64,000 nucleotides of DNA, taken from NCBI GenBank assembly GCA_029742005.1, contig GCA_029742005.1_4113.1; one strand, given 5' to 3'. Under the pieces are notes generated by a model. The model saw nothing but the letters and a program-made list of their open reading frames with translations, ran no database searches and was not told the origin of the DNA. Below are positions 1 to 25,518 of the stretch, in pieces. Positions within the stretch are counted from its first letter, which is position 1. The number at the start of each line of letters is the position of its first letter. Source of the stretch: a phage. The translations under genes and the position numbers were made by a program.

Positions 1-1
1 T

Positions 2-364
2 CATTCAGACGAAGAAATTGATGACATGGAAGCTGAACTGTCACAAGACCGCCAAATGACTGAAAAATCCCATAACGAACTACAGAAATTAATGCAATGG
101 GTTGCAGATGTTGGTGAAAAAGCTGGTGCTGATAAGAAGAGTATAAACCGAAATCTTAGTTGGATTAAAGATAAAGTTGGTAACAACGCTCGTAAACTAC
201 AAAAAGCGTGGACTGATGTAGTGAATGGTGCTGTTGACATTGATGTTGAATCCGGTGAGGCATATGATTATGCATTGACTACACTTGATGACTCTTTCCG
301 TGATTACGAAAATGGAAATGTAACTCCTTGGGAAAAGGATATCATGAGCAAATACGGTAAATGA
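2..364 (+). CDS. hypothetical protein (5' partial, continues upstream of window)
   Basis: Frame open to window start; stop at 362-364; hairpin + T-run terminator follows. Confidence 0.55.
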   Translation, partial: HSDEEIDDMEAELSQDRQMTEKSHNELQKLMQWVADVGEKAGADKKSINRNLSWIKDKVGNNARKLQKAWTDVVNGAVDIDVESGEAYDYALTTLDDSFRDYENGNVTPWEKDIMSKYGK

Positions 365-373
365 TAAAACAAA

Positions 374-400
374 AGGTTGACTTCGGTCAGCCTTTTTTTT
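374..400 (+). terminator. rho-independent terminator (GGTTGAC-TTCG-GTCAGCC + T8)
   Basis: Stem-loop followed by TTTTTTTT directly after stop. Confidence 0.7.
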
Positions 401-436
401 GTAAATACAAAAGAGGAATTAAGAAGAGGGATTACA

Positions 437-688
437 ATGAAAAAATATATTATATTTGGAATTGTATTATTTTCCAGTACTACTTATGGTGCAGATTATC
501 ATTGCTCCGTAGCAAGGCAGGATTTCAGAAATGGGGAGTTCTATACTACCTCATACACAAAAGGAATAATACACGACACCGACAGAACTATTGGATTTAA
601 TGCGTTTGACAACAAAGATTCATATACTTCAGGTATACTATCTGAGCGTAAGACGGATGTACTCGGAATAGAAAAAGAGTTTCGGTGA
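437..688 (+). CDS. small secreted/membrane-anchored protein (N-terminal signal-like segment)
   Basis: ATG preceded by AAGAGGG; hydrophobic N-terminus MKKYIIFGIVLFSSTTYGA. Confidence 0.55.
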   Translation: MKKYIIFGIVLFSSTTYGADYHCSVARQDFRNGEFYTTSYTKGIIHDTDRTIGFNAFDNKDSYTSGILSERKTDVLGIEKEFR

Positions 689-692
689 TTCC

Positions 693-1022
693 GTGGCAAT
701 GTGTAATGACATTGAAAGTACTAAAAAAATTTATTATAATAATGAAATAAATTATCGTTTTCATAATTTAACCACAAATAAAAGTTTACTATTTTACAAT
801 TGTAAAGAAGTAAAATTCCCACCAGACAATAGCTGTACTCCAACTAATCAACCCCCAGCACAATGTAATACTCCCTCTGAACCTGATAAAAATAAAAAAG
901 ACAAAGATAAAGATAAAAAAGAAGACAAAAAACCTTTAAAAGATAAAAAGAAAGATAAAAAACCTAATCCGTTTAAAAATAATAAACCAGCACAACCCGA
1001 TATGACGTGTAAAATAAAATAA
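693..1022 (+). CDS. hypothetical Lys/Asp-rich low-complexity protein
   Basis: 109-aa ORF with KDKDKDKK repeats and several Cys; no RBS checked. Confidence 0.4.
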   Translation: MAMCNDIESTKKIYYNNEINYRFHNLTTNKSLLFYNCKEVKFPPDNSCTPTNQPPAQCNTPSEPDKNKKDKDKDKKEDKKPLKDKKKDKKPNPFKNNKPAQPDMTCKIK

Positions 1023-1031
1023 GGATATAAA

Positions 1032-1451
1032 ATGAAAAAGATTTTTTTAAGTATTATTTTAGTACTTTTTAGTTTTAATGTATATGCAGCAGATGCTAAA
1101 CAGGTTGCTAATACAGTAAAAGATGTTATAGTAGACAATGCTCCTACCTTAGAGGAAATTGGGGTAAAAACTTGTGATATTGTAATATATAATTTAGTTA
1201 ATGATGAACGAGTTATGTTGAATACGTATGAACAAGTAGTCCCATTGGTTGAATCTGGTGCTGCTTTTAGCTTTACATATAAAGTTAAATTAACAGGAGG
1301 GGTTGAAGTTAATCTTGACATTGATACCGCTTCAGTACTAAAAGATAAACTAGGATATGTGTTCAATCGTATTCGTGAAGAAGGTCATCTTAAGTATGTT
1401 TATGAAAGTAAAATACTAAAACGTGCAATAGTTATAGAAAACTGTAAATGA
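1032..1451 (+). CDS. secreted protein with signal peptide
   Basis: RBS AAGGAT; N-terminus MKKIFLSIILVLFSFNVYAADA; terminator downstream. Confidence 0.65.
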   Translation: MKKIFLSIILVLFSFNVYAADAKQVANTVKDVIVDNAPTLEEIGVKTCDIVIYNLVNDERVMLNTYEQVVPLVESGAAFSFTYKVKLTGGVEVNLDIDTASVLKDKLGYVFNRIREEGHLKYVYESKILKRAIVIENCK

Positions 1452-1458
1452 TAATAAA

Positions 1459-1485
1459 AGGGTTGACTTCGGTCAGCCTTTTTTG
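1459..1485 (+). terminator. rho-independent terminator; stem carries TTGACT
   Basis: GGTTGACTTCGGTCAGCC hairpin + TTTTTTG. Confidence 0.65.
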
Positions 1486-1520
1486 TTATGATGTTGATAT
1501 TAACTACAGAGGATAAAGTA

Positions 1521-2162
1521 ATGACTAAGCAAGAAATATTCAAAACTTTAATTGACATTTTGCGTCCATCAAAAACTCGTTGTGCGATGGAGTTTGATAT
1601 TCCTTATGCTGAACGCGTAATCTTTCCACAAGTTAAAGCTGCTGGACTTACTTTGCTTGGAATGGGGATGTACTCTGTAGTAGTTGAACATAAAAACTAT
1701 CCTGGGCGTGCATTTAAAGTAACCACTTCACGCTGGGATGGTTTTCGTGCTTATGCAATGTACTGCATTGAAAACGCAGGAACCAAGTTTCTTCCAGTGA
1801 TCTACAGTGCAAACGAACAAGGAAACTTTGGATGGTATGAGATGGACAAGTACTATCCTATAATTAAACAAAAAAATAATTATGATGACTTTGTTAGTAC
1901 TAAAATTGGAGATTTATATTCTTATGCACATGCTGGTCAGTATGCTACTTCAGTGAATGATATGCGTGGAAATTCTGAAGAGATTGCTATTGCGACGGTC
2001 GCTGCTAACATCATGAAAGAGTTTCACGGGCGTTTTGTACCAGACATTCATTCCAGTAATGTCATGATGGATAAAGATGGCAATGTATTCATTACTGATC
2101 CTCTTTCGTGTGATGTACGTAGAGAAATACCAGTTACTGAAGAAGATCCAGTTTTTTATTGA
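1521..2162 (+). CDS. hypothetical protein, possible kinase/phosphotransferase-like fold
   Basis: RBS GAGGA before ATG; C-terminal DIHSSNVMMDKDGNVFITDP resembles a catalytic loop plus DFG-like motif. Confidence 0.45.
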   Translation: MTKQEIFKTLIDILRPSKTRCAMEFDIPYAERVIFPQVKAAGLTLLGMGMYSVVVEHKNYPGRAFKVTTSRWDGFRAYAMYCIENAGTKFLPVIYSANEQGNFGWYEMDKYYPIIKQKNNYDDFVSTKIGDLYSYAHAGQYATSVNDMRGNSEEIAIATVAANIMKEFHGRFVPDIHSSNVMMDKDGNVFITDPLSCDVRREIPVTEEDPVFY

Positions 2163-2224
2163 CAGAACTGATGTAATGAGGTATTCTTAATAAACCATTA
2201 AAAAGTGCGGTAAAGGATAAAATC

Positions 2225-2506
2225 ATGCGTTCATTTGAAAACTTAATAGGTAAGAATCTTTTATCTGAAATTGATGCAGACGTTAAAGAATTATCCAAAT
2301 CAAAAAGTTACATTCATTTGGATGAACTATTTGTTAAGTACGGTGAGATTGGTTTTAAGTCATTATTTGTTTTTACTATGAAAGTACATAGTTTAAAGTA
2401 CTTCGATTTGAGTGCTAAAGATGGTGAACCGAATCTATATTACATGTATTACCTTAAGAACAAAGATGAAGCTAATACATTACTCTCTGAATATATATTG
2501 GGGTAA
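2225..2506 (+). CDS. hypothetical protein
   Basis: RBS AAAGGATAAAATC-ATG; 93-aa ORF. Confidence 0.55.
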   Translation: MRSFENLIGKNLLSEIDADVKELSKSKSYIHLDELFVKYGEIGFKSLFVFTMKVHSLKYFDLSAKDGEPNLYYMYYLKNKDEANTLLSEYILG

Positions 2507-2508
2507 AA

Positions 2509-2847
2509 ATGGAACAATATTTTGAATTAATAAACAAAGTATCATTTTATGTAGTATCTTTGGTTTGGGTGTATTATATGTTTTGCTACATTATTGCATT
2601 CTTCCGATACACTACTTTATATGAACGTATCTACTATGATGCCCCAATTTCATTCTTGATGTTTTGTGCATGTACGTGGGGAATATTAGAAGTACTGATA
2701 TGTGGGTATAGTACTGATGAATTAAATCTGGTATCGGTGTTGACTGGGTTTTCATTTGTTGTTATGATAGCTGCCGTTCCAGTATGGTTGTTCTTTGGAC
2801 TAGTTCATCGCATTGATATATGGCGTTCTAATATCCCTGAAAAGTAA
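2509..2847 (+). CDS. small multi-pass membrane protein, family A
   Basis: Hydrophobic segments; basic C-terminus ..RSNIPEK; paralog of the 7584-10023 array. Confidence 0.55.
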   Translation: MEQYFELINKVSFYVVSLVWVYYMFCYIIAFFRYTTLYERIYYDAPISFLMFCACTWGILEVLICGYSTDELNLVSVLTGFSFVVMIAAVPVWLFFGLVHRIDIWRSNIPEK

Positions 2848-2856
2848 GGATTGGTA

Positions 2857-3198
2857 ATGATTTATTACACTAACATGTTTGCCTATGCTGTTGCTTGCAT
2901 TTACATTGTTTACTTCTTATTCGGTGGAGTACTGTGCTTCTTTAAGTACAAAACGTTGTTCAACCGAATGTACCCAAATCATCCAATTGTAGTTGTACTT
3001 TTGATTCTTTCAGTTTCTCAAATAATCGTTGAAACTACAATGGGTATCAGTAGTGTACATTATAGTTTTGGTACTATAGTAATTATTACTATGCTTATTG
3101 CATACATTTTAGTACTTGGATATGGTATCTTTGGTAATATTGGTATGAAAATGTATCATCGAATTAAAACATTACGTGATAATCTACCGGAGCGTTGA
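2857..3198 (+). CDS. small multi-pass membrane protein, family A
   Basis: RBS AAGGA; C-terminus ..LRDNLPER; table start at 2851 is TTG, ATG at 2857 used. Confidence 0.55.
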   Translation: MIYYTNMFAYAVACIYIVYFLFGGVLCFFKYKTLFNRMYPNHPIVVVLLILSVSQIIVETTMGISSVHYSFGTIVIITMLIAYILVLGYGIFGNIGMKMYHRIKTLRDNLPER

Positions 3199-3199
3199 T

Positions 3200-3544
3200 A
3201 TGTATAATTTGAACCTAATCTCATATATTATAACAACACTGTTTACATTCTATGCCTTTGTTGGTATAATCCTACTGTACTTTAAATTTTATAAAGTGTT
3301 TAACCGTTTCTATCCTTCAATGGAGAATGAGTTTTTCTTTGTGTTGTACGTATGTTACACATTCATGGCTACATGTTTCACTGTAGTCGATGGTGTCATC
3401 GGCATTAAAACTGCTGCACCAAATGGTAGTACGCTGGTTGCATTTATTCTTACCGGATTCCTTGCAACTTATATTGCCTTCATTGCAACATGGTCAGTGG
3501 TTGAATTTCTCTTGCGACTACGAAAGAATATGCCGAATCGATAG
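3200..3544 (+). CDS. small multi-pass membrane protein, family A
   Basis: RBS GGAG; C-terminus ..RKNMPNR; ATG at 3200 used instead of upstream GTG. Confidence 0.55.
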   Translation: MYNLNLISYIITTLFTFYAFVGIILLYFKFYKVFNRFYPSMENEFFFVLYVCYTFMATCFTVVDGVIGIKTAAPNGSTLVAFILTGFLATYIAFIATWSVVEFLLRLRKNMPNR

Positions 3545-3553
3545 GAGACATAT

Positions 3554-3808
3554 ATGTTTGCATTGCGTAACAAAAACACTAAAGAAATATTATGTTTAGA
3601 TACCGTATGGGATTGTGCGGGATCAACTACAGTTCTTGAAGAAGGAACTGGATATTGCGTGTTTGTTGTACATGATAGGAATGAACTCGAATTATTACTT
3701 GCTGAGTTCAATGCTGGTGGTAATCCTAACAGTACTGAATACCCTGAGATTATCAATCCAGCACCACCAGGCTCTTATGAAATTCTACAACTGTGGGAGT
3801 TGAAGTAA
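3554..3808 (+). CDS. hypothetical protein
   Basis: RBS TAGGAGA; 84 aa. Confidence 0.55.
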   Translation: MFALRNKNTKEILCLDTVWDCAGSTTVLEEGTGYCVFVVHDRNELELLLAEFNAGGNPNSTEYPEIINPAPPGSYEILQLWELK

Positions 3809-4188
3809 TGCGTCAAATGCACAAAGTAACCGAGCTAAACAAGCGTCTGGTTAAACAATCAATGTTCGAGGATAAAGAGTCTTATTATAACTTTAAACGT
3901 GCAGTAGAGGCTGCTATCCACATTCAGAAGCTTAAAGAACGTGGTTGTATTATTCTGGAAAATGGTTCGGAAGTTGTAACGGATGACTTTAGTGTAGCGT
4001 TTGATGTTTCACCTGACGGGACGCTATCAATGCCCCGCTTAGGAACTGGAAACATGACTGTTTGGGTTGGCTTCACTATGGGGAATGTACCTGGTACTGT
4101 GTACGTAGATGATGCGGAATTGAAAGACAGTTTCAAAAACTTATCTTATCTTGAACCACAATACGCACATGAAATGAATTTATTTTGA
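3808..4188 (+). CDS. hypothetical protein
   Basis: ATG overlaps preceding stop (TAATG); RBS GGGAG. Confidence 0.55.
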   Translation: MRQMHKVTELNKRLVKQSMFEDKESYYNFKRAVEAAIHIQKLKERGCIILENGSEVVTDDFSVAFDVSPDGTLSMPRLGTGNMTVWVGFTMGNVPGTVYVDDAELKDSFKNLSYLEPQYAHEMNLF

Positions 4189-4189
4189 G

Positions 4190-4218
4190 TTGACAAACAC
4201 ATTCAGTACTGTATAATG
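4190..4218 (+). promoter_or_regulatory. sigma70-like promoter (TTGACA-17-TATAAT) followed by 5' stem-loop at 4227-4246
   Basis: Exact consensus hexamers with 17-nt spacer; GGGATGA/TCATCCC hairpin downstream. Confidence 0.65.
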
Positions 4219-4264
4219 CTTATCAAGGGGATGAATTTCTCATCCCTACAATCGAGGAACTACC

Positions 4265-4819
4265 ATGATTACTTTTAAGAAAACTGCTAACCACATCCAT
4301 GAAATCTACATTAACGGTCACAAAGCTGGCCTTCTTCGTTTACTCGCCCATCATCCTGATGTTACCGTATCTGATAATGAACCTAAAGATTGGCGTGTAT
4401 TTTTCTTTGGAAAGTACAGTGATTTTCAAGTATCAAACCTGAAGAACATTCGTTCAGTATGCACGTTAACTGAAATTAAAGAAAAGTTAGAAAAAGCATT
4501 GAAAACTAATCCAGATGGTGTTCTTCCACCTGATAACTTTGTAGAGAAAGGTTATGCATTAGCTCATTTCAAAGATGGTACTATTCAATCTATCAGTACT
4601 GAATATGAATATCAATGGACTGAGTACTTCACTTATGGATCGCGTAATACATTGATGGCTTCACGTAGTAAATTGGAAGAAGTACTGACTCGTATGAATG
4701 AACGCGAACGTCAATTTTATGACAAACCAGAAATGTGGAGTTCAACTTACATTGACCGTATTGACTATGTTATTATGACTCCAATCTTTGACACTGCTTA
4801 CTATGATTCTTTGAAATAA
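4265..4819 (+). CDS. hypothetical protein
   Basis: RBS GAGGAA; 184 aa; downstream of promoter + hairpin. Confidence 0.6.
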   Translation: MITFKKTANHIHEIYINGHKAGLLRLLAHHPDVTVSDNEPKDWRVFFFGKYSDFQVSNLKNIRSVCTLTEIKEKLEKALKTNPDGVLPPDNFVEKGYALAHFKDGTIQSISTEYEYQWTEYFTYGSRNTLMASRSKLEEVLTRMNERERQFYDKPEMWSSTYIDRIDYVIMTPIFDTAYYDSLK

Positions 4820-4830
4820 GGATAACTTAT

Positions 4831-5007
4831 ATGAAACTACGTACTCGTAATCGACTGATGGATGCACTGTACCATGAACAGCTTTCACTGAATGAAGTGA
4901 AGCGACAGTTAATGTACACATATCTGTTACCCGCTCGCATTGCAAAACAACGTGCTAAAGAATTGCTGAAAGAAGCAATCGAGTACTGGGAATCTGATTC
5001 GTACTAA
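4831..5007 (+). CDS. small hypothetical protein (58 aa)
   Basis: RBS TAAGGA before ATG; absent from ORF track because under 60 aa. Confidence 0.45.
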   Translation: MKLRTRNRLMDALYHEQLSLNEVKRQLMYTYLLPARIAKQRAKELLKEAIEYWESDSY

Positions 5008-5035
5008 TTGTCACGTTAATTAAGTGAGGCGATAA

Positions 5036-5287
5036 ATGAAAATTTTATTAGTTCTAATACTACTAATTGTTTTACCATTTACGTTAGTATCCCCTGGACT
5101 TGCATGGAATGTGTTTGTGTACTTAGTATGTACTATTGTAGTAAATGGTATCTTGTTCTTAGTTCTATTCATAAATGGAATAGGACACGGTGGAGGATGG
5201 ACCAGTACTGCTGATATTGTACATAAAACCACTATGTCTTTATTTGTAGTGTGGAATTTATTCTGGACTTGGTTTGTGTTCTTCTAA
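5036..5287 (+). CDS. small membrane protein
   Basis: RBS GTGAGG; strongly hydrophobic 83 aa. Confidence 0.55.
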   Translation: MKILLVLILLIVLPFTLVSPGLAWNVFVYLVCTIVVNGILFLVLFINGIGHGGGWTSTADIVHKTTMSLFVVWNLFWTWFVFF

Positions 5288-5299
5288 TTAAAAAAAAAT

Positions 5300-5671
5300 A
5301 TGAATATAGATTTGAAAGGTGCAACCCGAACTGTCATACTCATTGGGGAATATGCTATCAAGATTCCAACCTTTAAAAGTTGGAAGCTATTCTTAACAGG
5401 GATGATAGCTAACCTCAATGAACGTTCTTGGATGCAGTACTCCAAGCGTAGTGATAGTGGTATCTGCCCTACGTTGTGGTCATCATGTACTGGACTAGTA
5501 ACTGTACAGAAACGTTGTAAGCCAGTACAACATAGGGGTTTATTTTGGGTGGAGTTGTGTGCTTTAGCATTGAATTCAGAGTTAAGTACTGACTTCTTCT
5601 ATTCAGATGCGAAGCCAGAAAACTTTGGGTATCTGGGTGGTAAGTTAGTTAAACTTGATTATGGAGATTAA
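5300..5671 (+). CDS. small protein with kinase-like motifs
   Basis: GATRTV..YAIKIP then DAKPENFG and KLDYGD, resembling Gly-loop/Lys/catalytic loop/DFG; only 123 aa. Confidence 0.4.
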   Translation: MNIDLKGATRTVILIGEYAIKIPTFKSWKLFLTGMIANLNERSWMQYSKRSDSGICPTLWSSCTGLVTVQKRCKPVQHRGLFWVELCALALNSELSTDFFYSDAKPENFGYLGGKLVKLDYGD

Positions 5672-5672
5672 T

Positions 5673-6095
5673 ATGTACGCACTGTATAATAAAGAAAAGA
5701 AACAATTTGCTAAGGTTGAAAAATCGATTGATACATTTGGCATGTTTAAGTACTGTATTGTGACGGACCCATATGCTAACTTGTATTACGTTCTTGATGA
5801 CGTATCAGTACTGCAACGATTGCTTGAACGTTCCAAAAGCCAATGCCAAGGTATCCATGATGGTTCAACTTATGAAACACCTGAGTGTTCCTATGGCTAT
5901 CTGGATGGGTATGAGATTGTGAAGTTGGGTGCATTGTTGATTAATGAGGAATTTATGAAACTATGTACATGTGATGATTGTGGTAAACAAATACCAGAAA
6001 GTGAAGTATATCGTAATGAAACTGCATTCGGTGATGATGGTGACTACTGCCAGGATTGTTTTTACGAGAACCATTATGATTTTGGCGATGATTAA
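5673..6095 (+). CDS. hypothetical protein with C-terminal Cys-rich (zinc-ribbon-like) region
   Basis: RBS GGAG; C-terminal CTCDDCGK..(21)..CQDC. Confidence 0.5.
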   Translation: MYALYNKEKKQFAKVEKSIDTFGMFKYCIVTDPYANLYYVLDDVSVLQRLLERSKSQCQGIHDGSTYETPECSYGYLDGYEIVKLGALLINEEFMKLCTCDDCGKQIPESEVYRNETAFGDDGDYCQDCFYENHYDFGDD

Positions 6096-6099
6096 AACA

Positions 6100-6127
6100 A
6101 AGGGTTGACTTCGGTCAGCCCTTTTTG
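6100..6127 (+). terminator. rho-independent terminator overlapping a promoter -35
   Basis: AGGGTTGACTTCGGTCAGCCCT hairpin + TTTTTG. Confidence 0.65.
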
Positions 6128-6134
6128 TTATAAT
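6105..6134 (+). promoter_or_regulatory. promoter TTGACT-18-TATAAT embedded in terminator
   Basis: -35 lies in hairpin stem; -10 TATAAT at 6129-6134. Confidence 0.5.
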
Positions 6135-6162
6135 CATTTCATCGAAACGAGAGGATGAATAC

Positions 6163-6678
6163 ATGACACGCATTAACTTAGTACACGTTAAAGAACTTGC
6201 TGACCAACATCTGATGGCTGAATATCGTGAACTCCCACGTGTATTTGGTGCTGTACAAAAACACGTTCAAGCACGTAAGCGTGTACGTGATTTCAAAATT
6301 AACAGTACTTACCTGTTAGGTTCAGGTCATGTAACATTCTTCTACAACAAGTTATTGTACTTACAGAAGCGTCATATTGATATTGTTAACGAATGTTTGC
6401 GTCGTGGTATGAAGATTCAAAACACTGAAGTAAACGACATTAGCGGATTCCCTGCTGAGTTTTGTAATGACTACGTACCATCGGAGTCAGAGATTAAAAT
6501 GTCTCGTGAGCGTTTGATTGAGAAGCTACAGATGAAGCCTACGTGGTATAAATTTACTGACGTTGAACGCCCACAGTATGTTAAAGATATGCAGGACGTA
6601 AGTAGTAATATAGAATCTAGTACTGATTTGTTCGACGAAATTGAAGAACAAATCAAAGATGAAATGAATAATTATTAA
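6163..6678 (+). CDS. denV: pyrimidine-dimer DNA glycosylase / endonuclease V
   Basis: N-terminal 130 aa closely match the T4 DenV sequence as recalled ([46 protein letters not shown]); acidic C-terminal extension. Confidence 0.88.
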
Positions 6679-6683
6679 AGAAA

Positions 6684-6710
6684 AGGGTTGACTTCGGTCA
6701 GCCCTTTTTG
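6684..6710 (+). terminator. rho-independent terminator overlapping a promoter -35
   Basis: GGGTTGACTTCGGTCAGCCC + TTTTTG. Confidence 0.65.
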
Positions 6711-6718
6711 CTATAATT
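6688..6718 (+). promoter_or_regulatory. promoter TTGACT-19-TATAAT embedded in terminator
   Basis: Same composite as at 6100; spacer is long (19). Confidence 0.4.
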
Positions 6719-6745
6719 ATTTCATCAACTGATGAGGATAACGAA

Positions 6746-7516
6746 ATGACCAGAGAAGCACGTAGCATTCAAATCCAGAAAAACTTCAACTCCATGATGG
6801 TTGCTCTTGAGTGTTTGCTCGATGATAGCAGTACTGTAAAAAGTATGGTTGTCAGCGGTGCACCTGGTGTTGGTAAGACTTACACCCTGTCACAACGCCT
6901 CCAGAAAGCTCATGACGCAGCAGAATGGAACGTAGCTACTATCAGTGGTAAGATGACTACTCTTGCTCTGTATGAAGTTCTGTACAAGAATCGTCACAGC
7001 ACTAACGTATTAGTACTGGATGATATGGACAGCATCTTTGATTCAGAAGACGGTATGAACCTGCTCAAAGCAGTACTGGACAGCGGTAAACGTACTGTGT
7101 CTTACATGACTAGCTCTAAGTACTTAACTACCAACGGTATCCCTAACAGCTTTGATTTTAACGGTCGTATCGTATTCATTACTAACAAAGATTTAGCACT
7201 GAATGCTAAAGCTAAAACCAAAATGTCTGCTCACTATGCTGCTCTTATGTCTCGCTCTGTGTATGTTGACTTACAGATCCAGACTAAAAGCGATATCATG
7301 ATTCACATTGAAAACGTAATGAACAAGACCAACATCCTGTCAACTAAAGGTGTTAATAGTAATGGTAGTAAAGCAATCCTGAATTGGATGCTGAAACATG
7401 AAGATGCACTTCGTGCCCCTTCACTGCGTATGCCTCTGTTGATTTCAGCAGTATACAACAACAACCCGTATGATTGGGAAGAGCAGTGCGAAAACTTGTT
7501 CCTTGAGAAAATTTAA
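6746..7516 (+). CDS. P-loop NTPase (AAA-like ATPase)
   Basis: Walker A GAPGVGKT and Walker B-like VLVLDDMD; RBS GAGGA. Confidence 0.6.
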   Translation: MTREARSIQIQKNFNSMMVALECLLDDSSTVKSMVVSGAPGVGKTYTLSQRLQKAHDAAEWNVATISGKMTTLALYEVLYKNRHSTNVLVLDDMDSIFDSEDGMNLLKAVLDSGKRTVSYMTSSKYLTTNGIPNSFDFNGRIVFITNKDLALNAKAKTKMSAHYAALMSRSVYVDLQIQTKSDIMIHIENVMNKTNILSTKGVNSNGSKAILNWMLKHEDALRAPSLRMPLLISAVYNNNPYDWEEQCENLFLEKI

Positions 7517-7525
7517 TTACATGTA

Positions 7526-7554
7526 TTGACAGTACTACACTATGGTAGTACTAT
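7526..7554 (+). promoter_or_regulatory. promoter TTGACA-17-TACTAT with inverted repeat AGTACTAC/GTAGTACT
   Basis: Consensus -35; weaker -10; palindrome spans the spacer. Confidence 0.45.
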
Positions 7555-7583
7555 AACTTAATATTCACCACCGGAGATACGAT

Positions 7584-7922
7584 ATGCTTGAGTTTTTTAA
7601 TTCAGATACAATGCTTAGTATTACTTTGATTTATCTGTTTGGTTTTTTCTTTTATCATGCACTAGTTGTAGTACTATGGTATTTTAAAAAGAAAATCGTT
7701 TTCAAACTGTATCCTGATGGAAACATTTCACTACTTCTTTTCACTATTATCCAAGGTATGTTTGCAATTGTTGGTCTTATCGCACACTTAATTTATTGTG
7801 CTAATCCACAGTTGAACTCAATATCACAATATATTGTATTCCTTGGATTACTAATTTGGGTGCTGATATACTTGTTTAATCTCATCATTAATGGTAGAGC
7901 AAAAATTCGTGGGGACTTCTAA
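7584..7922 (+). CDS. small multi-pass membrane protein, family A
   Basis: RBS GGAGA; hydrophobic; first of seven tandem paralogs. Confidence 0.55.
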   Translation: MLEFFNSDTMLSITLIYLFGFFFYHALVVVLWYFKKKIVFKLYPDGNISLLLFTIIQGMFAIVGLIAHLIYCANPQLNSISQYIVFLGLLIWVLIYLFNLIINGRAKIRGDF

Positions 7923-8269
7923 TGTTTGAATCTTATCTTGAGTTTTTAAAGAGTAGTTCTGTTGCACATTCAATTGCAGGGATTATTCTAACAGGTTATG
8001 TAACATTTTGGGTAGTTATGTTTCTAGGATGGTATTTTAAACGACAATTCTATAAGCGTAATGGTGAAGATTTTATGAATTCTTTCATTAATCAATCGTT
8101 GTTTGCATCAACATTGATAGCATGTATTGTAGCAACACTCACAGGAAAGGTACTGCCAGCATTCTCCGCAGTTTACGGTACATTGGGTATGATATGTGTA
8201 GTTTTTTACTTGACCATTAAACTTTGTTGTGTTATGATTGAACTTCGAAACAAGATACCGGAGGAATGA
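7922..8269 (+). CDS. small multi-pass membrane protein, family A
   Basis: Start overlaps previous stop; C-terminus ELRNKIPEE. Confidence 0.55.
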   Translation: MFESYLEFLKSSSVAHSIAGIILTGYVTFWVVMFLGWYFKRQFYKRNGEDFMNSFINQSLFASTLIACIVATLTGKVLPAFSAVYGTLGMICVVFYLTIKLCCVMIELRNKIPEE

Positions 8270-8604
8270 TGGAATATTTTTTACACTTACTGCCGTGGTA
8301 TATGAAAGTTAGTACTATGTACTATATTCTTAGTGCTGGATTCTACTTTCTGATGTGGTTCTTCAAACGACCAATTTCAGTATTCATCTCTGATAACATG
8401 CTGCAATTAAAATTACACGCATGGTTTTTTATGGCGATGTTTATGCCTATTATTCACTACTCAATGATTAGTAGAGGTTTACGTTCTAATGGTGAACCAA
8501 TTATATTAGTATTCTATTGGGGTTCAACTATTGCATATGTAAGTTTGTTGTTGATCCCAGCCGTTCATAAATTACGTGCTAAAGTTCCTGATGTGAGGTA
8601 CTAA
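8266..8604 (+). CDS. small multi-pass membrane protein, family A
   Basis: ATGA stop/start overlap; C-terminus KLRAKVPDVRY. Confidence 0.55.
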   Translation: MMEYFLHLLPWYMKVSTMYYILSAGFYFLMWFFKRPISVFISDNMLQLKLHAWFFMAMFMPIIHYSMISRGLRSNGEPIILVFYWGSTIAYVSLLLIPAVHKLRAKVPDVRY

Positions 8605-8918
8605 TGGATATCTTAACATTGATTTACACGTTGTATTCATTCTATTTTATTATGTGTTGGGTTGGATTTTTATTTGTACTGAAGATGTTTGATTATGTTG
8701 AAAAACAGATAAAAGAATTTTGTATTCCTTTTATTGGGTCAACCATTATTAGTATTACTTGTTTGTATTATTTGGTATGTGATCCACCTGATGATACAGC
8801 TATGATTGATTTCATGTTATTGCCAACAACTGTTATTTTTTTATGTAGTCTGATGCCACCGATTAGCCGTGGACTAACTGAATTTAGACGCAATCAAAAG
8901 CGTAAACGAGGGATGTGA
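8604..8918 (+). CDS. small multi-pass membrane protein, family A
   Basis: RBS GAGG; C-terminus EFRRNQKRKRGM. Confidence 0.55.
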   Translation: MDILTLIYTLYSFYFIMCWVGFLFVLKMFDYVEKQIKEFCIPFIGSTIISITCLYYLVCDPPDDTAMIDFMLLPTTVIFLCSLMPPISRGLTEFRRNQKRKRGM

Positions 8919-9286
8919 TGGAAATTGCACTTATTATATTAACTGCTATGTTGTTTATTAGTACAATTGTTATTATTGGCAAGTTCTTCTGTGTATCCTT
9001 CTTGGAAACCGTATACGATGAAATTGCTGATGATTATGAATTACATGCGGGATTTTTTACTACGTATTGGATTAGTTTATTACTACTTATCACTGTATGG
9101 ATTTTACATATATTCAAATGGGGTATGGTAGATGGTGATCCAGTACTGGCAATTATCTGTGTAGTGTTTGGTCTACTCGGTGGTGCTGTCCATAATCTGA
9201 TGGTAATTTGGCAAACCGTACAATATGTATTAGTTCCACATTTTCAGAGAATGCACCAAAGCATCAAATACCGCAAACGAGGATAA
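8918..9286 (+). CDS. small multi-pass membrane protein, family A
   Basis: ATG at 8918 after RBS GAGGG (ORF track starts at GTG 8915). Confidence 0.55.
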   Translation: MEIALIILTAMLFISTIVIIGKFFCVSFLETVYDEIADDYELHAGFFTTYWISLLLLITVWILHIFKWGMVDGDPVLAIICVVFGLLGGAVHNLMVIWQTVQYVLVPHFQRMHQSIKYRKRG

Positions 9287-9287
9287 C

Positions 9288-9650
9288 ATGAATAATATTG
9301 AATTATCTTTTATTGGTCAATTAATGGTAATGGCGTATACATTTATCTTCTCACTGAATGCATTCGTGTGCATTGGGAAGTACTTCCATAAGCGACCATT
9401 ATCAAATATATATGATGTAATCCAAAAGAGATATAGTCCAGCATATACTGTGTTGGGTACAGTATTCAATTTTGGTTTTATTGTATTAATAATTGGACTG
9501 TTCACATCCTCTTTGAATACAATAACCTTCGGTCTTATGATATGTTCATTGGTATTAGCCGTAATTATATGTTGTTTAGTACTACACCTTGTGATACTAT
9601 TATATATAAAGATCTCTGAAATCCACCAACGTTTGGGTATGAGGAAATAA
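9288..9650 (+). CDS. small multi-pass membrane protein, family A
   Basis: RBS GAGGA; hydrophobic. Confidence 0.55.
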   Translation: MNNIELSFIGQLMVMAYTFIFSLNAFVCIGKYFHKRPLSNIYDVIQKRYSPAYTVLGTVFNFGFIVLIIGLFTSSLNTITFGLMICSLVLAVIICCLVLHLVILLYIKISEIHQRLGMRK

Positions 9651-9651
9651 T

Positions 9652-10023
9652 ATGAGTTACCGTGAGATATTTTCCATTATTTCAATTATTATGTTCAGTA
9701 CTGGAACACTGGTATGGTTATTATATTTCTTCTGTATTAATCCAGTGTATAATATGTTATGTAATATTAAATCAAGTGCCGGATATATCACTTTTATGGT
9801 CTTTATGGGATATTATTGTCTAAGCATTTTAGGTGTTGTTTTGGTTGTTATATTTGATGTGGGGCCAAATAGTGATGGTATGGAAATACATGAATTAATA
9901 ACCATGTTTGGATGTATGATACCAACAGCACTACTGTTTGTAGCTACTGGTAGTGGATTGATAAAATTATATAATTATTTAAAATCCATTCATAATTCCA
10001 TTCATAATAAGCGTATGTCATAA
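9652..10023 (+). CDS. small multi-pass membrane protein, family A
   Basis: RBS GAGGAA; hydrophobic. Confidence 0.55.
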   Translation: MSYREIFSIISIIMFSTGTLVWLLYFFCINPVYNMLCNIKSSAGYITFMVFMGYYCLSILGVVLVVIFDVGPNSDGMEIHELITMFGCMIPTALLFVATGSGLIKLYNYLKSIHNSIHNKRMS

Positions 10024-10065
10024 TAAAAAATCCAGTACTATTAAGTACTGGATGTATAAGGAGTT

Positions 10066-10728
10066 ATGATGAAATCAAAATTAGGTTTGTTTTATAAAAA
10101 CTATTTTGTTAAACAACGTAAATTTATAAAAAAATATTTCTCTGGTGAGAAGTCTAGTCCTATAATTTTTAAAAGACCAAGTTATAATACTTACTTAGCT
10201 GGTGCTAAACAGTCTAAGAAATTTATTACTCTTTTAAATAAAAACAAAATTAAAGCTTCTTATGTTGAAACGAGAAGAAACTCATCAATAACTCCTGGTG
10301 ATTTTATTGAGTACGGATGTTTCAATATTAAGTATAATGATAATACATACTTTATGGATATTGATTGTAATACATCCAATCTTTTTAACATTGTAGTAAA
10401 TCCATTAAAACAATATAATGTTTATGGTGATTCTATTATCAAATTAATAAAAAACAAAGATGGCTTTGATTTTGAAATAAATGTTTTAGATGATAATTTT
10501 GACGAAGTACCCGTAAACCCTGAAATCTGTGATATTTTAAACAGTTTAAAAGGTAGTACCTACAATATATCATCTGATTTAATGTTTCAGTACTCATTAA
10601 TCCATAAAGATATTGAAAAGTATATTGAATGCTCCAGAATTTTGAATTTTCTCTATGATGAATTTAAAAAGAGTTCTAAAATAACTGCATACACTTTGTA
10701 CAATATTCCTAAAATGGTGAATCTTTAA
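10066..10728 (+). CDS. hypothetical protein
   Basis: RBS AAGGAG; 220 aa; converges on the minus-strand block. Confidence 0.55.
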   Translation: MMKSKLGLFYKNYFVKQRKFIKKYFSGEKSSPIIFKRPSYNTYLAGAKQSKKFITLLNKNKIKASYVETRRNSSITPGDFIEYGCFNIKYNDNTYFMDIDCNTSNLFNIVVNPLKQYNVYGDSIIKLIKNKDGFDFEINVLDDNFDEVPVNPEICDILNSLKGSTYNISSDLMFQYSLIHKDIEKYIECSRILNFLYDEFKKSSKITAYTLYNIPKMVNL

Positions 10729-11132
10729 CAAATACAGTACTGGCAACTCCACCGTCTGTAATATATTGTCCAGTACTGTAAATTTGTATACCATCGGTTA
10801 AGTAAGTTCTGTATAAAGTTGCTGTAACATATACGTTATTCATATTCATCTCTATTGGTAGTACACATTTGGTATAGGCCGACACATCTGTTTGTGTACC
10901 TATACCCAATTGACCTGCGTTATCGCCTGTGTTATTACCAGTTGCGTAAACACCCAATGAAGTTATAATATGATTAGAAAAATATGAATAACCCAAACTC
11001 TTGAGATTCTCTACTGTACAACGTACCATCTGACATAAGGGCAAAAACTGTTGTATCAGATGAAGCTATTTTTGTTACAGAAGGTTGTATGTTCTGTTTT
11101 GATGATGTGATAATTCTTCGAAAGGGTAGCAT
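10709..11132 (-). pseudogene. truncated/frameshifted RCC1-like paralog
   Basis: MLPFRR start after GGAGGA at 11132; frame breaks in 10974-11044; downstream frame has GNNTGDNAGQLGIG; total about 170 aa versus 370-395 aa for paralogs. Confidence 0.4.
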
Positions 11133-11203: not shown

Positions 11204-12373
11204 CTAAGCAGAAGGCATATCCTTCATCTTAATAAATGAAAATTGTGTACCAGTATTTGTGGTTTGATCAGTAAAATATGAATTACTACCAGCCCAGTAC
11301 AATTCATTATTAACTATACAATATATAACAGAACTCGAACTCTGTGAATACACACGACTTATATTTGATGGTTCTACTCCAGTACTGAACTGAACCGAAC
11401 CCAACTGTGAACTTGGTATCACATCAGTTGGTCTACCTAAACCATTAACACCAGCCCCACCACCACATGTATATACCCCAGTACTATCAGTTGATATATT
11501 AACATAACCATTCCCGGCATTTTCAAATAGTATTTCACTGGGAGCAACACCAAATCCTGTAAGATCTATTTTCCTGAATGTAGTGTAAACAGTAGAACCA
11601 CCAACACCTCTTCCACCATAATCATTAGAACCAGCCATATAGATACTATATCCAGAACTTCCTAAACATAATAACTGTACGTTGTCATATAATATTTGCA
11701 TAGATATAACGTTATCAGGAATACTCAATACCGTAAAAGTAGTTAAAGAAGAACTTCCAATATTACTACCAACCGATGTTCCACATCTGTAGTACTTACC
11801 GCCTTTTATATAATGGAACGATGAACCCCCTAACTTATGTGCTCCTATTGCACTTACCTCAGTATCTATGAGAATGGGAGATACAACTTTGTTATTAACA
11901 CCTAACTCAGATCTACTGTTCATACCGAACCCATATAAACGACCATCTAACATCAATATTAGTGTACTACCGGAAGTACCCGCTGACGTAAATTCTATAT
12001 TCTTTATTTGCGACACGTCAATACCTACAAATAATGAAGTTACTTCAGTCCAGTTAACATATGAACCACTAGCCCCAAAATATCCACCCATGTATAGACC
12101 TGCACAATATAATTTATTATCAACAGTCTTTATTAATGTACCGGATACACACGCCCAAAAATCATCAACTTCATAGGGTACATGTACCCAACCACCTAAT
12201 ACATCACTAGCATCCCCTGTACCTAATTTATAGTTCGAACCAGAACCACGCATGTACATATTCCCTGTACTATAAAGTAATCCGACATGTAATTGACTAC
12301 CATCCAATTTCTTTATTTCGGGAAGAGTTGGTTTAATATTTCCGTACTTTAACATTCTTCCAAAAGGTAACAT
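11204..12373 (-). CDS. RCC1-like repeat (beta-propeller) protein, MLPF family
   Basis: Start MLPFGRMLKYGN after AAAGGAGGAA; G-x-N-x-x-G-x-LG-like repeats. Confidence 0.6.
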   Translation of the reverse strand: MLPFGRMLKYGNIKPTLPEIKKLDGSQLHVGLLYSTGNMYMRGSGSNYKLGTGDASDVLGGWVHVPYEVDDFWACVSGTLIKTVDNKLYCAGLYMGGYFGASGSYVNWTEVTSLFVGIDVSQIKNIEFTSAGTSGSTLILMLDGRLYGFGMNSRSELGVNNKVVSPILIDTEVSAIGAHKLGGSSFHYIKGGKYYRCGTSVGSNIGSSSLTTFTVLSIPDNVISMQILYDNVQLLCLGSSGYSIYMAGSNDYGGRGVGGSTVYTTFRKIDLTGFGVAPSEILFENAGNGYVNISTDSTGVYTCGGGAGVNGLGRPTDVIPSSQLGSVQFSTGVEPSNISRVYSQSSSSVIYCIVNNELYWAGSNSYFTDQTTNTGTQFSFIKMKDMPSA

Positions 12374-12399
12374 AATTCCTCCTTTATTCATTATACTAT

Positions 12400-12437
12400 A
12401 TTTAATACAAAAAGAAAAGCCAGTACAGAGTACTGGC
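12400..12437 (-). terminator. terminator hairpin GCCAGTAC-N3-GTACTGGC with T-run on minus strand
   Basis: Perfect 8-bp stem; minus-strand transcript reads hairpin then TTTTCTTTTT. Confidence 0.55.
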
Positions 12438-12444
12438 CTATATT

Positions 12445-13164
12445 TTAGACTGAATTGTTAGGATAATATCTCCCACGTCCCCATATTATTCGCACAGCAC
12501 CACCACCAGCAGCCGTATAAGAAAAATTATCCCATATACTACCACCACCACCATACATCTTACCAGCACCACCACTACCAGCACCACCATTATATGAACC
12601 ATCGTATCTACCGCCAATACCATTAGCACCTTGAACAATGATACCAGTACCACCACCCGTACCAATGAACGAGGTATTATAGAATGCACCACCACCGCCG
12701 CCGCCGCCAGCACCATTTTCACCAGTGATTGCATCTCCGTTACCACCTTTACCAGTGTAGCCACCAGCACCACCACCAATGACTGCACCACCACTTACAC
12801 CAGCGTTGCCCCCATTACCACCACCATCATTAATAGCGTTAGCAGCTTTCCCACCTAGTCCACCAACCCTATATTCACCAGTGAAGCTAACACATAGTTT
12901 TTCAGTTCCACGATATAAACCGTTTTCAACTGGTGTAGTAGTGTTGGGATGTGTAAGAGAAACACTTAAGTACTCACCACTAGTAACCGGAATATTATTA
13001 CGCCACGATAAGCCGCCACCAGCACCACGTTGACCACCCGGCGAAATAACACATACTGATATTTCGGTAACGCCAGCAGGAACTGTAAATTGTGTTGTTC
13101 CTATTGTCGTGATTAATTGTTCACCATGTGGCTTATATTCAATTTTATTCCCTCCTTTATTCAT
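12445..13164 (-). CDS. glycine-rich repeat protein (possible fibre-like structural protein)
   Basis: 239 aa, long GGxGG runs in C-terminal two thirds; same upstream module as RCC1 genes. Confidence 0.55.
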   Translation of the reverse strand: MNKGGNKIEYKPHGEQLITTIGTTQFTVPAGVTEISVCVISPGGQRGAGGGLSWRNNIPVTSGEYLSVSLTHPNTTTPVENGLYRGTEKLCVSFTGEYRVGGLGGKAANAINDGGGNGGNAGVSGGAVIGGGAGGYTGKGGNGDAITGENGAGGGGGGGAFYNTSFIGTGGGTGIIVQGANGIGGRYDGSYNGGAGSGGAGKMYGGGGSIWDNFSYTAAGGGAVRIIWGRGRYYPNNSV

Positions 13165-13180
13165 TATAATATATTTAATA

Positions 13181-13211
13181 CAAAAAAGAAAAGCCAGTAC
13201 TCTGTACTGGC
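13181..13211 (-). terminator. terminator hairpin GCCAGTAC-N3-GTACTGGC with T-run
   Basis: Same hairpin as 12419-12437. Confidence 0.55.
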
Positions 13212-13218
13212 TTTTACA

Positions 13219-14409: not shown

Positions 14410-14478
14410 ATTTCCTCCTTATTCATTATACTATATTTAATACAAATAAGAATGCCAGTATCAAGTACTGGCATTATG

Positions 14479-15588: not shown

Positions 15589-15598
15589 AATTCTCTCC

Positions 15599-16729: not shown

Positions 16730-16804
16730 AACTAAAATCTCCATATAATAATTATAATGTATTTACAAAAAAATACCAGTACATATTTCAGTACTGGCAT
16801 TTTG

Positions 16805-17932: not shown

Positions 17933-18007
17933 AACTAAAATCTCCATATAATAATTATAATGTATTTACAAAAAAATACCAGCACATATTTCAGTACTGG
18001 TATAATG

Positions 18008-19180: not shown

Positions 19181-19221
19181 AACTAAATACCAGAACATAT
19201 TTCAGTACTGGTATCGTAGCG

Positions 19222-20364: not shown

Positions 20365-20436
20365 ATTTCCCTCCTTTATTCATTATACTATATTTAATCA
20401 AAAATAAAAGCCAGTACTTGAGTACTGGCATAGTAT

Positions 20437-21564: not shown

Positions 21565-21636
21565 AATTCCCTCCTTTATTCATTATACTTTATTTAATAC
21601 AAATAAGAATTCCTGTATCGAGTACTGGCATTCAAT

Positions 21637-22785: not shown

Positions 22786-22827
22786 ATTTCCTCCTTTATT
22801 CATTATATCATATTTACCCCATAACCC

Positions 22828-22881: not shown

Positions 22882-23109
22882 ATGACAGCTACACTTAAGT
22901 ACTACATTAATACTCTAAATGAACTAGAGTACGGTAAGTTTCTCGCGGATTGTTCGTGGCTAATAGAGCTAAAAACACATAACAGTACTGGATGTAACCT
23001 TATGCTGAACAATGCACTTGATACCCTTGTAGTGAGTATTTTACACAGCAACATCTGCGGGAATAGCAATAAACAATTATCAAAAATCTTAGTACTGGTA
23101 GCTATATGA
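22882..23109 (+). CDS. small hypothetical protein (family B-like)
   Basis: RBS TAAGGAG; 75 aa. Confidence 0.5.
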   Translation: MTATLKYYINTLNELEYGKFLADCSWLIELKTHNSTGCNLMLNNALDTLVVSILHSNICGNSNKQLSKILVLVAI

Positions 23110-23318: not shown

Positions 23319-23319
23319 T

Positions 23320-23505: not shown

Positions 23506-23516
23506 AAGAGTACTAT

Positions 23517-23911: not shown

Positions 23912-23921
23912 AGAGAATACT

Positions 23922-24107: not shown

Positions 24108-24115
24108 GGTACTCT

Positions 24116-24295: not shown

Positions 24296-24303
24296 GGAAT
24301 AAT

Positions 24304-24483: not shown

Positions 24484-24494
24484 AGGAATCTAAT

Positions 24495-25329: not shown

Positions 25330-25330
25330 T

Positions 25331-25510: not shown

Positions 25511-25518
25511 CACATAAT

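Follow-up and report, generated by a model that had tools for sequence, protein, structure and literature searches.

Small early membrane proteins of virulent phages form a large and scarcely characterised class. Understood examples are T4 Imm, Sp and HK97 gp15, which control entry into the infected cell. T4 Imm, HK97 gp15 and P22 SieA are small inner-membrane superinfection-exclusion proteins; they are dispensable, appear early and differ among related phages. Imm itself is a single-copy protein of 83 amino acids (aa) in length with two transmembrane (TM) segments. The class I holin of phage lambda, S105, is a protein of about 105 aa whose three TM helices are arranged N-out/C-in. Here we analysed a 64,000-nucleotide (nt) stretch of phage DNA (contig GCA_029742005.1_4113.1, hereafter the window) that carries ten genes for small, predicted membrane proteins, M1 to M10, in two tandem blocks at 2509-3544 and 7584-10023. 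Profile comparisons point to a single family, and breaks in similarity between related genomes point to exchange of whole arrays. We tentatively read the array as an exchangeable repertoire of early inner-membrane proteins that may act in conflict, through superinfection exclusion or anti-defence, and we put the probability of this reading at roughly 40%.

Results

Ten small genes in two tandem blocks

By megablast, positions 2000-10500 of the window matched the Asteriusvirus jumbo phages fEgEco12, UE-S1, ph0011, 121Q and PBECO4 at 87-98% identity. On these matches we assign the window to Asteriusvirus, as DNA of a 121Q/PBECO4-like Escherichia coli jumbo phage, and it is therefore a piece of a Rak2-like myovirus genome of about 350 kb.

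All ten open reading frames (ORFs) that an earlier note on this DNA had listed were found on the + strand, and they encode proteins of 104-123 aa. Block 1 consists of M1 (2509-2847, 112 aa), M2 (2857-3198, 113 aa from the ATG at 2857 or 115 aa from a TTG at 2851) and M3 (3200-3544, 114 aa from its ATG, the form annotated in relatives, or 122 aa from a GTG at 3176). Block 2 consists of M4 (7584-7922, 112 aa), M5 (7922-8269, 115 aa), M6 (8266-8604, 112 aa), M7 (8604-8918, 104 aa), M8 (8918-9286, 122 aa, or 123 aa from a GTG at 8915), M9 (9288-9650, 120 aa) and M10 (9652-10023, 123 aa). The short or overlapping gene spacing described in the note was borne out by measured gaps of -4 to +9 nt between neighbours, and in block 2 the stop and start codons overlap by 1-4 nt. 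Every array gene has a GGAG/GAGG-like Shine-Dalgarno sequence. The ratio of nonsynonymous to synonymous substitution rates (dN/dS), calculated against close orthologues in UE-S1, ph0011 and 121Q where substitutions sufficed, was 0.03-0.56 for the array genes and 0.03-0.25 for neighbouring genes; the array genes are somewhat more relaxed but still below 1. Together with the ribosome-binding sites, these ratios indicate that the array ORFs are translated genes under purifying selection. In the 121Q record gp199 and gp201 are flagged as virion proteins, a flag that the array genes gp207-209 and gp224-232 do not carry.

Relatedness of the array proteins

Similarity between the members is weak, at 15-25% pairwise identity, and is visible only with profiles. 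Pairwise BLASTP was significant only for M1-M2 and M2-M3, with M4-M5 and M8-M9 borderline. The PHROGs database splits the ten proteins into seven families, all of 'unknown function': phrog_19285 (M1), phrog_19454 (M4), phrog_19046 (M5), phrog_27396 (M6), phrog_33258 (M7), phrog_26405 (M8) and phrog_27618 (M10). Nine of the ten are full-length PHROG members (E-values of 1e-46 to 1e-70), with M3 reaching just 4e-4 to phrog_19285; M9 gave a weak match to phrog_26405 alone (E = 0.042). Weak cross-matches among these families hint at relatedness: M5 also matched phrog_19454, 27396 and 16874, and M7 weakly matched phrog_16874, which is labelled 'membrane protein'.

For a profile-profile test, orthologues from seven Asteriusvirus genomes were assembled into one alignment per paralogue and compared with hhalign, using reversed sequences as controls. 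Real pairs scored 25-74, against about 21 at most for the reversed-sequence controls. The pairs M1-M2 (74), M1-M3 (55), M5-M6 (39), M8-M10 (38, over 115 columns), M8-M9 (37), M1-M5 (34) and M4-M5 (30) were linked in this way, as was M4 to J135, a block 1-type gene of phage JNE01 (36), and M1-M4 aligned in register over 94 columns with a score of 29. Two membrane proteins from the same genomes that served as negative controls, the product of 5036-5287 and 121Q gp189, showed no hhalign link to the family.

In a leave-one-group-out test, a hidden Markov model (HMM) built from all other groups was challenged with each member and with 300 decoys shuffled within topological segments. Eight of the ten members passed, with 0 or 1 of the 300 decoys reaching the real score (z = 4.0-7.8), while M6 was marginal and M7 failed. 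Subfamily profiles were then enriched with Klebsiella, Erwinia and metagenomic sequences and run against 500 decoys. With the subfamily A profile, M6 and its orthologues passed (0/500 decoys). The window copy of M7 was equalled by 17 of the 500 decoys, and its orthologues in phage A4, metagenomic contig L011 and Erwinia phage Hallingskeid by none (0/500 each). The A and B profiles also recognised members of the other subfamily (M4, 0/500; M10, 1/500; M8, 2/500).

Subfamily A (M1-M6) carries W/Y-F/Y-F-K-K/R right after the first TM segment (GWYFKR in M5, WFFKRP in M6), Y-P/D in loop 1, and the tail L/F-R-x-K/N-I/L-P-E/D/N with the core R-x-K-I-P-E; its tails read ..WRSNIPEK (M1), ..LRDNLPER (M2), ..LRKNMPNR (M3), ..LRNKIPEE (M5) and ..LRAKVPDVRY (M6). 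Subfamily B (M7-M10) carries G-K-F/Y-F-C/H after the first TM segment (GKFFCV in M8, GKYFHKRP in M9), Y-D-x-I in loop 1 and H-x-x-I-K-x-K/R-K/R in the tail (..MHQSIKYRKRG in M8, ..IHQRLGMRK in M9, ..IHNSIHNKRMS in M10). The motifs are degenerate in M4 (tail ..GRAKIRGDF) and M7 (VGFLF; tail ..FRRNQKRKRGM), and F32 is the sole nearly invariant position in the family alignments. Among orthologues of a given member, conservation is highest in loop 1, along with TM1 and the tail, and lowest in TM2, loop 2 and TM3. In M2 and M5 the Pro-Glu codons of the tail, CCGGAG, are also the Shine-Dalgarno sequence of M3 and M6 (3185-3198 and 8256-8269), so that tail conservation could partly be a constraint at the nucleotide level. 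The Pro-Glu motif is also kept where other codons encode it (CCT GAA in M1), in M3, which closes block 1, and among distant homologues. On these comparisons the ten proteins are one old, very divergent family with two subfamilies, of which M7 is the least secure and weakest member.

Predicted topology and structure

As the earlier note had suggested, the ten sequences were aligned and their TM topology predicted, giving alignable similarity by profiles and a consistent three-TM layout. Hydropathy was scanned by the Kyte-Doolittle method, and topology was derived from K+R counts over 27 family members under the positive-inside rule. Where the note had described three or four hydrophobic segments, three were found in every member, at about 10-30, 46-66 and 78-100, and a fourth in none; M6 is the member with the lowest hydrophobicity. 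The K+R counts by region were 10 for the N-terminus, 75 for loop 1, 12 for loop 2 and 125 for the tail, a distribution that predicts an N-out/C-in topology. The tail is indeed basic, as previously described, with those 125 K+R set against 38 D+E in the C-terminal regions. The prediction of a 100-130 aa protein with three TM segments and N-out/C-in orientation holds for all ten members and for orthologues in seven other phages, and the array proteins most likely reside in the inner membrane.

AlphaFold models were of moderate confidence, with a predicted local distance difference test score (pLDDT) of 69 for M1 (family alignment) and 74 for M10 (subfamily alignment). The modelled helices span 2-31, 35-41, 45-65 and 74-107 in M1 and 3-26, 30-37, 42-68 and 79-122 in M10. 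The models thereby suggest a common layout in which TM1 is followed by a short cytoplasmic-loop helix, TM2 and a long TM3 that extends into the basic tail.

Two further ORFs of the window have at least three hydrophobic segments. One, 12486-12794 (-), lies wholly inside a 239-aa ORF (12445-13164), and the other, 848-1366, overlaps + strand ORFs. Since neither matches the family profiles, the family is confined to the two blocks within the 64-kb window.

Transcription signals

A sigma-70-type promoter-like site, TTGACA-17-TATTCT (2159-2187, + strand), lies in the gap before the block 1 operon, and the TTGACAGAACT...-10 arrangement is kept upstream of this operon in 121Q, UE-S1 and ph0011; in A4 a PeSL promoter replaces it. 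A second such site, TTGACA-17-TACTAT with a palindromic spacer (7526-7554, + strand), immediately precedes M4. Its TTGACAGTACT...-10 arrangement stands 5' of the first array gene in 121Q, UE-S1, ph0011, JNE01 and Turkey5, and is thus kept although the array proteins of JNE01 and Turkey5 are just 31-55% identical. Intergenic DNA, which makes up 5% of the region, holds five of the 13 best + strand promoter matches (P = 3e-4). The neighbours include early-type genes, encoding a T7-like kinase, DenV and an NrdC.10-like ATPase. The conserved sigma-70-type promoters suggest early transcription by the host RNA polymerase, and, as far as predicted signals can tell, the blocks most likely form two translationally coupled operons expressed in this way. 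RNA sequencing (RNA-seq) of phage PA5oct was considered as a source of timing information and proved inapplicable, the PA5oct-like phage Ettore having the ATPase without the array.

Distribution and age of the arrays

The array is found with a conserved upstream neighbour, a T4 NrdC.10-like P-loop/AAA ATPase of 256 aa (phrog_1250; 6746-7516, + strand). A coupled array downstream of this ATPase, with A-type genes before B-type genes, was seen in block 2 of the window, 121Q, UE-S1, ph0011, JNE01, A4, Turkey5, Klebsiella phage KP13-7/RaK2 (Alcyoneusvirus), Erwinia phage Hallingskeid and contig L011; block 1 (M1-M3) is a separate A-type outpost after a kinase gene. After the ATPase there are 8 members in KP13-7/RaK2, 10 in Hallingskeid and 12 in L011, so that copy number across arrays is 8-12, and block 1 has 1 to 3 copies. 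Within the 7 kb that precede the Klebsiella ATPase, no block 1 gene was found.

With a ten-member profile, a word-indexed search of 5.8 billion proteins gave 26 clusters; with a 20-sequence profile, HMMER run exhaustively over 1.84 billion representatives gave only 31 proteins at E <= 0.001. All 31 are of 89-127 aa, with nearly full-length coverage save in two shortened copies (P0024 and P0036), and the motifs recur in newly found distant members, one of which reads WFFKVPYY...LRNKIPNRWE. When all 686 ORFs from the window and thirteen further loci were scanned with family HMMs, matches fell in these arrays only; no match was obtained in T6 or in Ettore, both of which have the ATPase. A scan of IMG/VR with the ATPase returned only 121Q and RaK2 themselves.

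Orthologues of M4, M5, M6, M7, M8 and M10 are recognisable in the Klebsiella RaK2-like phage, and the Erwinia and metagenomic arrays match the window at the subfamily level, A-type then B-type. These paralogue orthologues and the shared order in Klebsiella and Erwinia relatives imply that the genes were duplicated before the enterobacterial Rak2-like genera separated. The earlier note had called this an unusual tandem amplification; the genes are tandem paralogues, but the paralogy is ancient and the copies have been kept individually, which does not agree with recent amplification. Extra, lineage-specific duplications affect M4 (121Q, UE-S1 and ph0011), M7 (JNE01 and Turkey5) and M5 (KP13-7). 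In 121Q the M7 orthologue is split into gp228 and gp229 (locus L002, 17664-17979), and in Salmonella phage SD-2_S15 M5 is truncated (locus L007, 9001-9201). Sequencing error is possible in both cases, and these copies may equally be dispensable members or such errors. A conserved 42-aa soluble ORF (MKPEQWII.DMRAMR...) lies inside the Klebsiella, metagenomic and Erwinia arrays (L008, 8076-8204; L011, 4614-4742; L015, 8613-8741) and is absent from that of the window.

Exchange of arrays between phages

In JNE01, A4 and Turkey5 the flanking genes (g4265, g4831, X5036, g5300 and denV) encode proteins mostly 90-100% identical to those of the window, the exception being g4265 of Turkey5 at 78%, whereas the array proteins of the same phages are only 23-65% identical. 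Copies from the Klebsiella phages, at 22-39%, stand at nearly the same distance. DNA similarity stops at the array borders; that to A4 runs as far as 7518, 2 nt beyond the stop codon of the ATPase. The ATPase itself occurs in Asteriusvirus as alleles of about 96% (121Q and A4) or about 57-59% (UE-S1, ph0011, JNE01 and Turkey5) identity to the window. Co-variation of ATPase and array was considered and rejected, because the alleles assort independently: A4 combines an ATPase of 96% with an array of 25-65%, and UE-S1 and ph0011 combine an ATPase of 59% with an array of 71-90%.

PeSL promoter-terminator cassettes have been reported to mediate modular shuffling in T4-type phages (PMC2839356, PMC4122927). 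An 18-mer hairpin, GGTTGACTTCGGTCAGCC, occurs in the window as exact copies at 375-392, 1461-1478, 6103-6120 and 6686-6703 (chance expectation 0.01), with variants at 36288, 39295 and 44003. A -35 box lies within the GGTTGACTTCGGTCAGCC hairpin, a T-run and TATAAT come after it, and on its sequence the repeat looks like a combined terminator and early promoter of the PeSL type. The breakpoints found by blastn against related phages (398, about 1440, 6086-6103 and 6677-6700) lie near hairpin copies, and the PeSL-like copy at 6686-6703 (+ strand) marks the left breakpoint of the ATPase-array module. No PeSL marks the borders of the array itself (7518-7584 and about 10711-10999). Taken with the identity values, the breakpoints indicate that whole arrays are exchanged between phages as cassettes.

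Searches against known families

The earlier note had proposed comparison with known Imm and holin families, and this comparison returned no match for any of the ten proteins in Pfam or NCBIfam. More broadly, none matched Pfam (including the holin and Imm_superinfect models), NCBIfam or PADLOC at E <= 1, and the family profile run against all Protein Data Bank (PDB) sequences at E <= 10 likewise matched none; these scans gave only sub-threshold matches of a compositional kind. Foldseek returned nothing below E = 1, either for the M1 model in BFVD or for the M10 model in PDB. The top, non-significant fold matches were generic three-helix membrane subunits such as SdhC in PDB and two adjacent 'putative membrane proteins' of phage CBB in BFVD; the latter are probably distant relatives.

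Two leads from annotation were set aside. Notes in the ph0011 annotation tie the ATPase and the M4 orthologue to Phi92_gp231 and gp233; no phi92 record came up in a tblastn search with M4 at E <= 1. Where block 1 would lie, Hallingskeid has an annotated 'superinfection immunity protein' that scored 15.9 bits with Imm_superinfect, below the cut-off of 27.9, and it was not used. Array genes are deposited as 'hypothetical' or 'putative membrane' proteins, and no description of the family was found in the literature on 121Q, PBECO4, RaK2, CBB, Sharanji, fEgEco12 and UE-S1 or in a 2026 jumbo-phage review.

Gene neighbourhood and other paralogue families

All genes in window 1-10728 are carried by the + strand. 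Upstream of the block 1 operon is a T7 gp0.7-like protein kinase of the host-shutoff type (1488-2162). The first gene of the operon (2225-2506) encodes a 93-aa soluble protein, phrog_37917 (PHROGs: unknown function), which co-varies with block 1, being 53-60% identical in A4 and Turkey5 where the conserved genes downstream are 90-100%. A DenV pyrimidine-dimer glycosylase (6163-6678) lies before the ATPase, a protein that matched 1310 phage records, mostly T-even-like. The last gene of the + strand unit (10066-10728) encodes a 220-aa soluble protein, phrog_34359 (PHROGs: unknown function), which co-varies with block 2: it is 32% identical in JNE01 and Turkey5 and missing from A4.

Between the blocks sits a very hydrophobic 83-aa protein, X5036 (5036-5287, +), which is unrelated to the array family. 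Its identity is 96-99% across those Asteriusvirus loci in which it was found, including loci with highly divergent arrays, a sharp evolutionary contrast between this conserved membrane protein and the array proteins just 2-3 kb away. The same region holds another duplicated small gene: phrog_8563 is matched by an 84-aa protein after block 1 (3554-3808, +) and by the N-terminal part of a 146-aa protein (5655-6095, +).

Ten tandem members do stand in the window, as the earlier note said; the label 'unusual' has to be qualified, since at least four other tandem paralogue families occupy the same 64 kb, and phages of this group generally build such arrays of paralogues. On the opposite strand, adjoining the membrane-protein array, about ten tandem paralogues of 369-396 aa starting MNKGG..LPF (11204-22803, -) are annotated in relatives as RCC1-like 'regulator of chromosome condensation' proteins; the run is broken up by the 239-aa ORF 12445-13164, which is glycine-rich. 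About ten ORFs of 60-85 aa (22882-26868, +) share a recurring N-terminal (K/E)-(Q/E)-(Y/F)-Y-x-x-x-L motif. A large paralogue family of about 25 tandem genes (46159-52043, +) encodes proteins of 70-90 aa with similar N-termini (..L(T/S)..EY..) and C-termini reading ..LGTN, ..LGTD or ..VGTN. Five tandem paralogues of 146-164 aa starting MSL(Q/E)(S/R)ALE.AKKIH (61247-63571, +) are preceded, just 5', by two 119-aa paralogues (60522-61237, +).

Discussion

The reading that we favour is that the array proteins act at the cytoplasmic membrane of the infected cell, in conflict between phages or between phage and host. Exclusion or conflict roles fit best because the arrays behave like cassettes and differ strongly between phages that are nearly identical elsewhere. 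Variable copy number, broken members in some sequenced phages, a dN/dS above that of the neighbours, the low conservation of TM2, loop 2 and TM3 and the predicted early promoters also favour accessory proteins of this kind, and the lack of a virion flag in the 121Q record speaks against a structural role. Such proteins might block genome entry by superinfecting phages, as T4 Imm does (the two are unrelated in sequence), or they might neutralise membrane-embedded host defence effectors. The cytoplasm-facing TM1, the aromatic-Phe-Lys/Arg motif, loop 1 and the tail motif would form a common chassis for insertion, oligomerisation or binding of a shared partner, and the more variable TM2-loop2-TM3 hairpin would be the specificity part, with different paralogues covering different targets.

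Several observations weigh against such a repertoire. No homologue of known function appeared in Pfam, NCBIfam, PADLOC, the PDB sequences or the Foldseek libraries. M4-M8 and M10 have one-to-one orthologues in Klebsiella phages, where an arms-race repertoire would be expected to turn over more, and this orthology suits co-operating subunits better. Because dN/dS is below 1, the hypervariability amounts to whole-array replacement by deeply diverged alleles, not to demonstrable positive selection. The best-conserved residues face the cytoplasm, a side on which an incoming injection apparatus would not make its first contact. Finally, early timing derives solely from promoter prediction, and the PA5oct-like phages, the source of the available RNA-seq, lack the array.

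The alternative that survives best, though it stays tentative, is that each paralogue supplies a different subunit to a single hetero-oligomeric assembly in the inner membrane, such as a channel, platform or anchor, co-translated from the coupled operon and possibly working with the NrdC.10-like ATPase by way of the conserved loop and tail motifs on the cytoplasmic side. Besides the retention of M4-M8 and M10 orthologues in RaK2-like phages of Klebsiella, and an order of A before B shared by the Klebsiella, Erwinia and metagenomic arrays, it would account for the translational coupling through the 1-4 nt stop/start overlaps of block 2, the replacement of the array en bloc and not gene by gene in A4 and JNE01, the ATPase immediately 5' of the array in every array-bearing lineage examined, and the peak of conservation on the cytoplasmic face. 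Against a fixed assembly stand a member number that varies from 8 to 12 with lineage-specific duplications, a block 1 that has 1-3 copies and did not turn up within the 7 kb 5' of the ATPase in the Klebsiella phage, and split or truncated members in sequenced phages. The link to the ATPase is further loosened by the independent recombination of ATPase and array alleles (A4; UE-S1 and ph0011), by the occurrence of the same ATPase family without any array in T-even and PA5oct-like phages, and by block 1, which lies in a separate operon 4 kb away from it. The more specific form of this idea, in which 8-12 three-helix subunits build a co-translationally assembled early membrane machine specific to enterobacterial Rak2-like phages, and possibly coupled to the ATPase through the loop and tail motifs, seems to us unlikely. 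If a multi-subunit complex were the truth, it would be a new kind of viral membrane machine and not a set of independent exclusion factors.

It is also doubtful that the proteins are host-takeover effectors which bind and inhibit or adjust an inner-membrane machine of the host (a transporter, the respiratory chain, the divisome, Sec/YidC or FtsH) in the service of the long jumbo-phage cycle. The early-type context with an adjoining T7 gp0.7-like host-shutoff kinase would suit that role, as would small integral membrane proteins with conserved cytoplasmic motifs, and M5 and M7 weakly match phrog_16874, which PHROGs places in the category 'moron, auxiliary metabolic gene and host takeover'; that category is a label, not a tested function. 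Ten or more paralogues would be required for one target class, and the fit is poor because the membrane machines of E. coli are conserved, yet the arrays are 23-65% identical beside flanks of 90-100%. Inhibition of host membrane systems, one of the functions that the earlier note had offered, is conceivable, if less likely.

Lysis control was offered as well: the proteins would be holins, antiholins or pinholins that time the action of the signal-anchor-release endolysin in Rak2-like phages. In this group the endolysin is a lysozyme with a transmembrane anchor, and its homologue in 121Q is gp532 (PMC5259590). Proteins of 104-123 aa with three TM segments, N-out/C-in orientation and a charged tail have the architecture of a class I holin, the endolysins of Rak2-like phages carry a transmembrane domain at the N-terminus, and no holin is described in the CBB paper (PMC5259590). 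Even so, we consider this role very improbable. No Pfam or NCBIfam holin model matches at E <= 1, the neighbourhood contains no lysis gene, and endolysin gp532 of 121Q is about 300 genes from gp207-232. Both arrays have conserved early sigma-70-type predicted promoters and no late-type signal was seen at them, and ten paralogues with cassette hypervariability are unlike holins. Moreover, the fEgEco12 paper reports holin and lysozyme genes, whereas the features of that phage matching window 2213-10053 (20 hypothetical proteins, endonuclease V and an HNH endonuclease) carry no such label.

Chance resemblance among unrelated hydrophobic or decaying ORFs, without common descent or function, could be argued from the 15-25% identity, the mostly non-significant BLASTP pairs, the seven PHROG families and the marginal recognition of the window M7 by other members' profiles, but it is largely refuted by profile-profile and leave-one-out scores above those of reversed and segment-shuffled controls with other membrane proteins unlinked, by common motifs at fixed positions, and by purifying selection, ribosome-binding sites and orthologues across three host genera.

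The analysis merges seven PHROG families of 'unknown function' into one with a defined topology, motifs and distribution, and so delimits an orphan family that occurs as an ordered array in jumbo phages of Escherichia/Salmonella, Klebsiella and Erwinia. Its motifs on the cytoplasmic face are clear, mutable handles. The practical gain is modest for now, and no new mechanism is shown by this analysis. If exclusion or anti-defence is the function, the array would help to explain how slow and costly jumbo-phage infections are protected, and it would matter for therapy cocktails containing Asteriusvirus, in which such genes would cause interference between phages.

Set beside the known systems, the array resembles the Imm-type exclusion proteins in comprising small phage proteins, predicted to be inner-membrane and probably early, that vary between related phages. 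It differs from T4 Imm (PF14373, Imm_superinfect) in member length, in copy number, in having three segments, and in the lack of a sequence match at E <= 1. With class I holins such as S105 it shares, by prediction, three TM segments, the N-out/C-in orientation, a charged cytoplasmic C-terminus and a similar size. Unlike those holins, the array proteins match no holin model in Pfam or NCBIfam at E <= 1, their genes are not beside an endolysin or spanin and have no lysis domain among the neighbours at 1488-10728, they have early sigma-70-type predicted promoters and form ten paralogues instead of one gene, and they lack a dual-start motif with a charged residue between the starts. The T4-type hyperplastic regions, which PeSL cassettes bound, offer a third comparison, since the window likewise has repeated promoter hairpins, breaks of similarity at those hairpins and a variable cargo of small genes with no assigned function; it differs from them in belonging to a Rak2-like jumbo phage, in the left border of block 2, which is a plain promoter gap (7518-7584), and in its cargo, which is a conserved, ordered paralogue array and not random ORFans. 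The array proteins are thus a new, clade-restricted family within a familiar class, the small accessory membrane proteins of the plastic early regions of large virulent phages, and their unusual trait is an ordered array of 8-12 paralogues that is kept across genera and swapped as a cassette.

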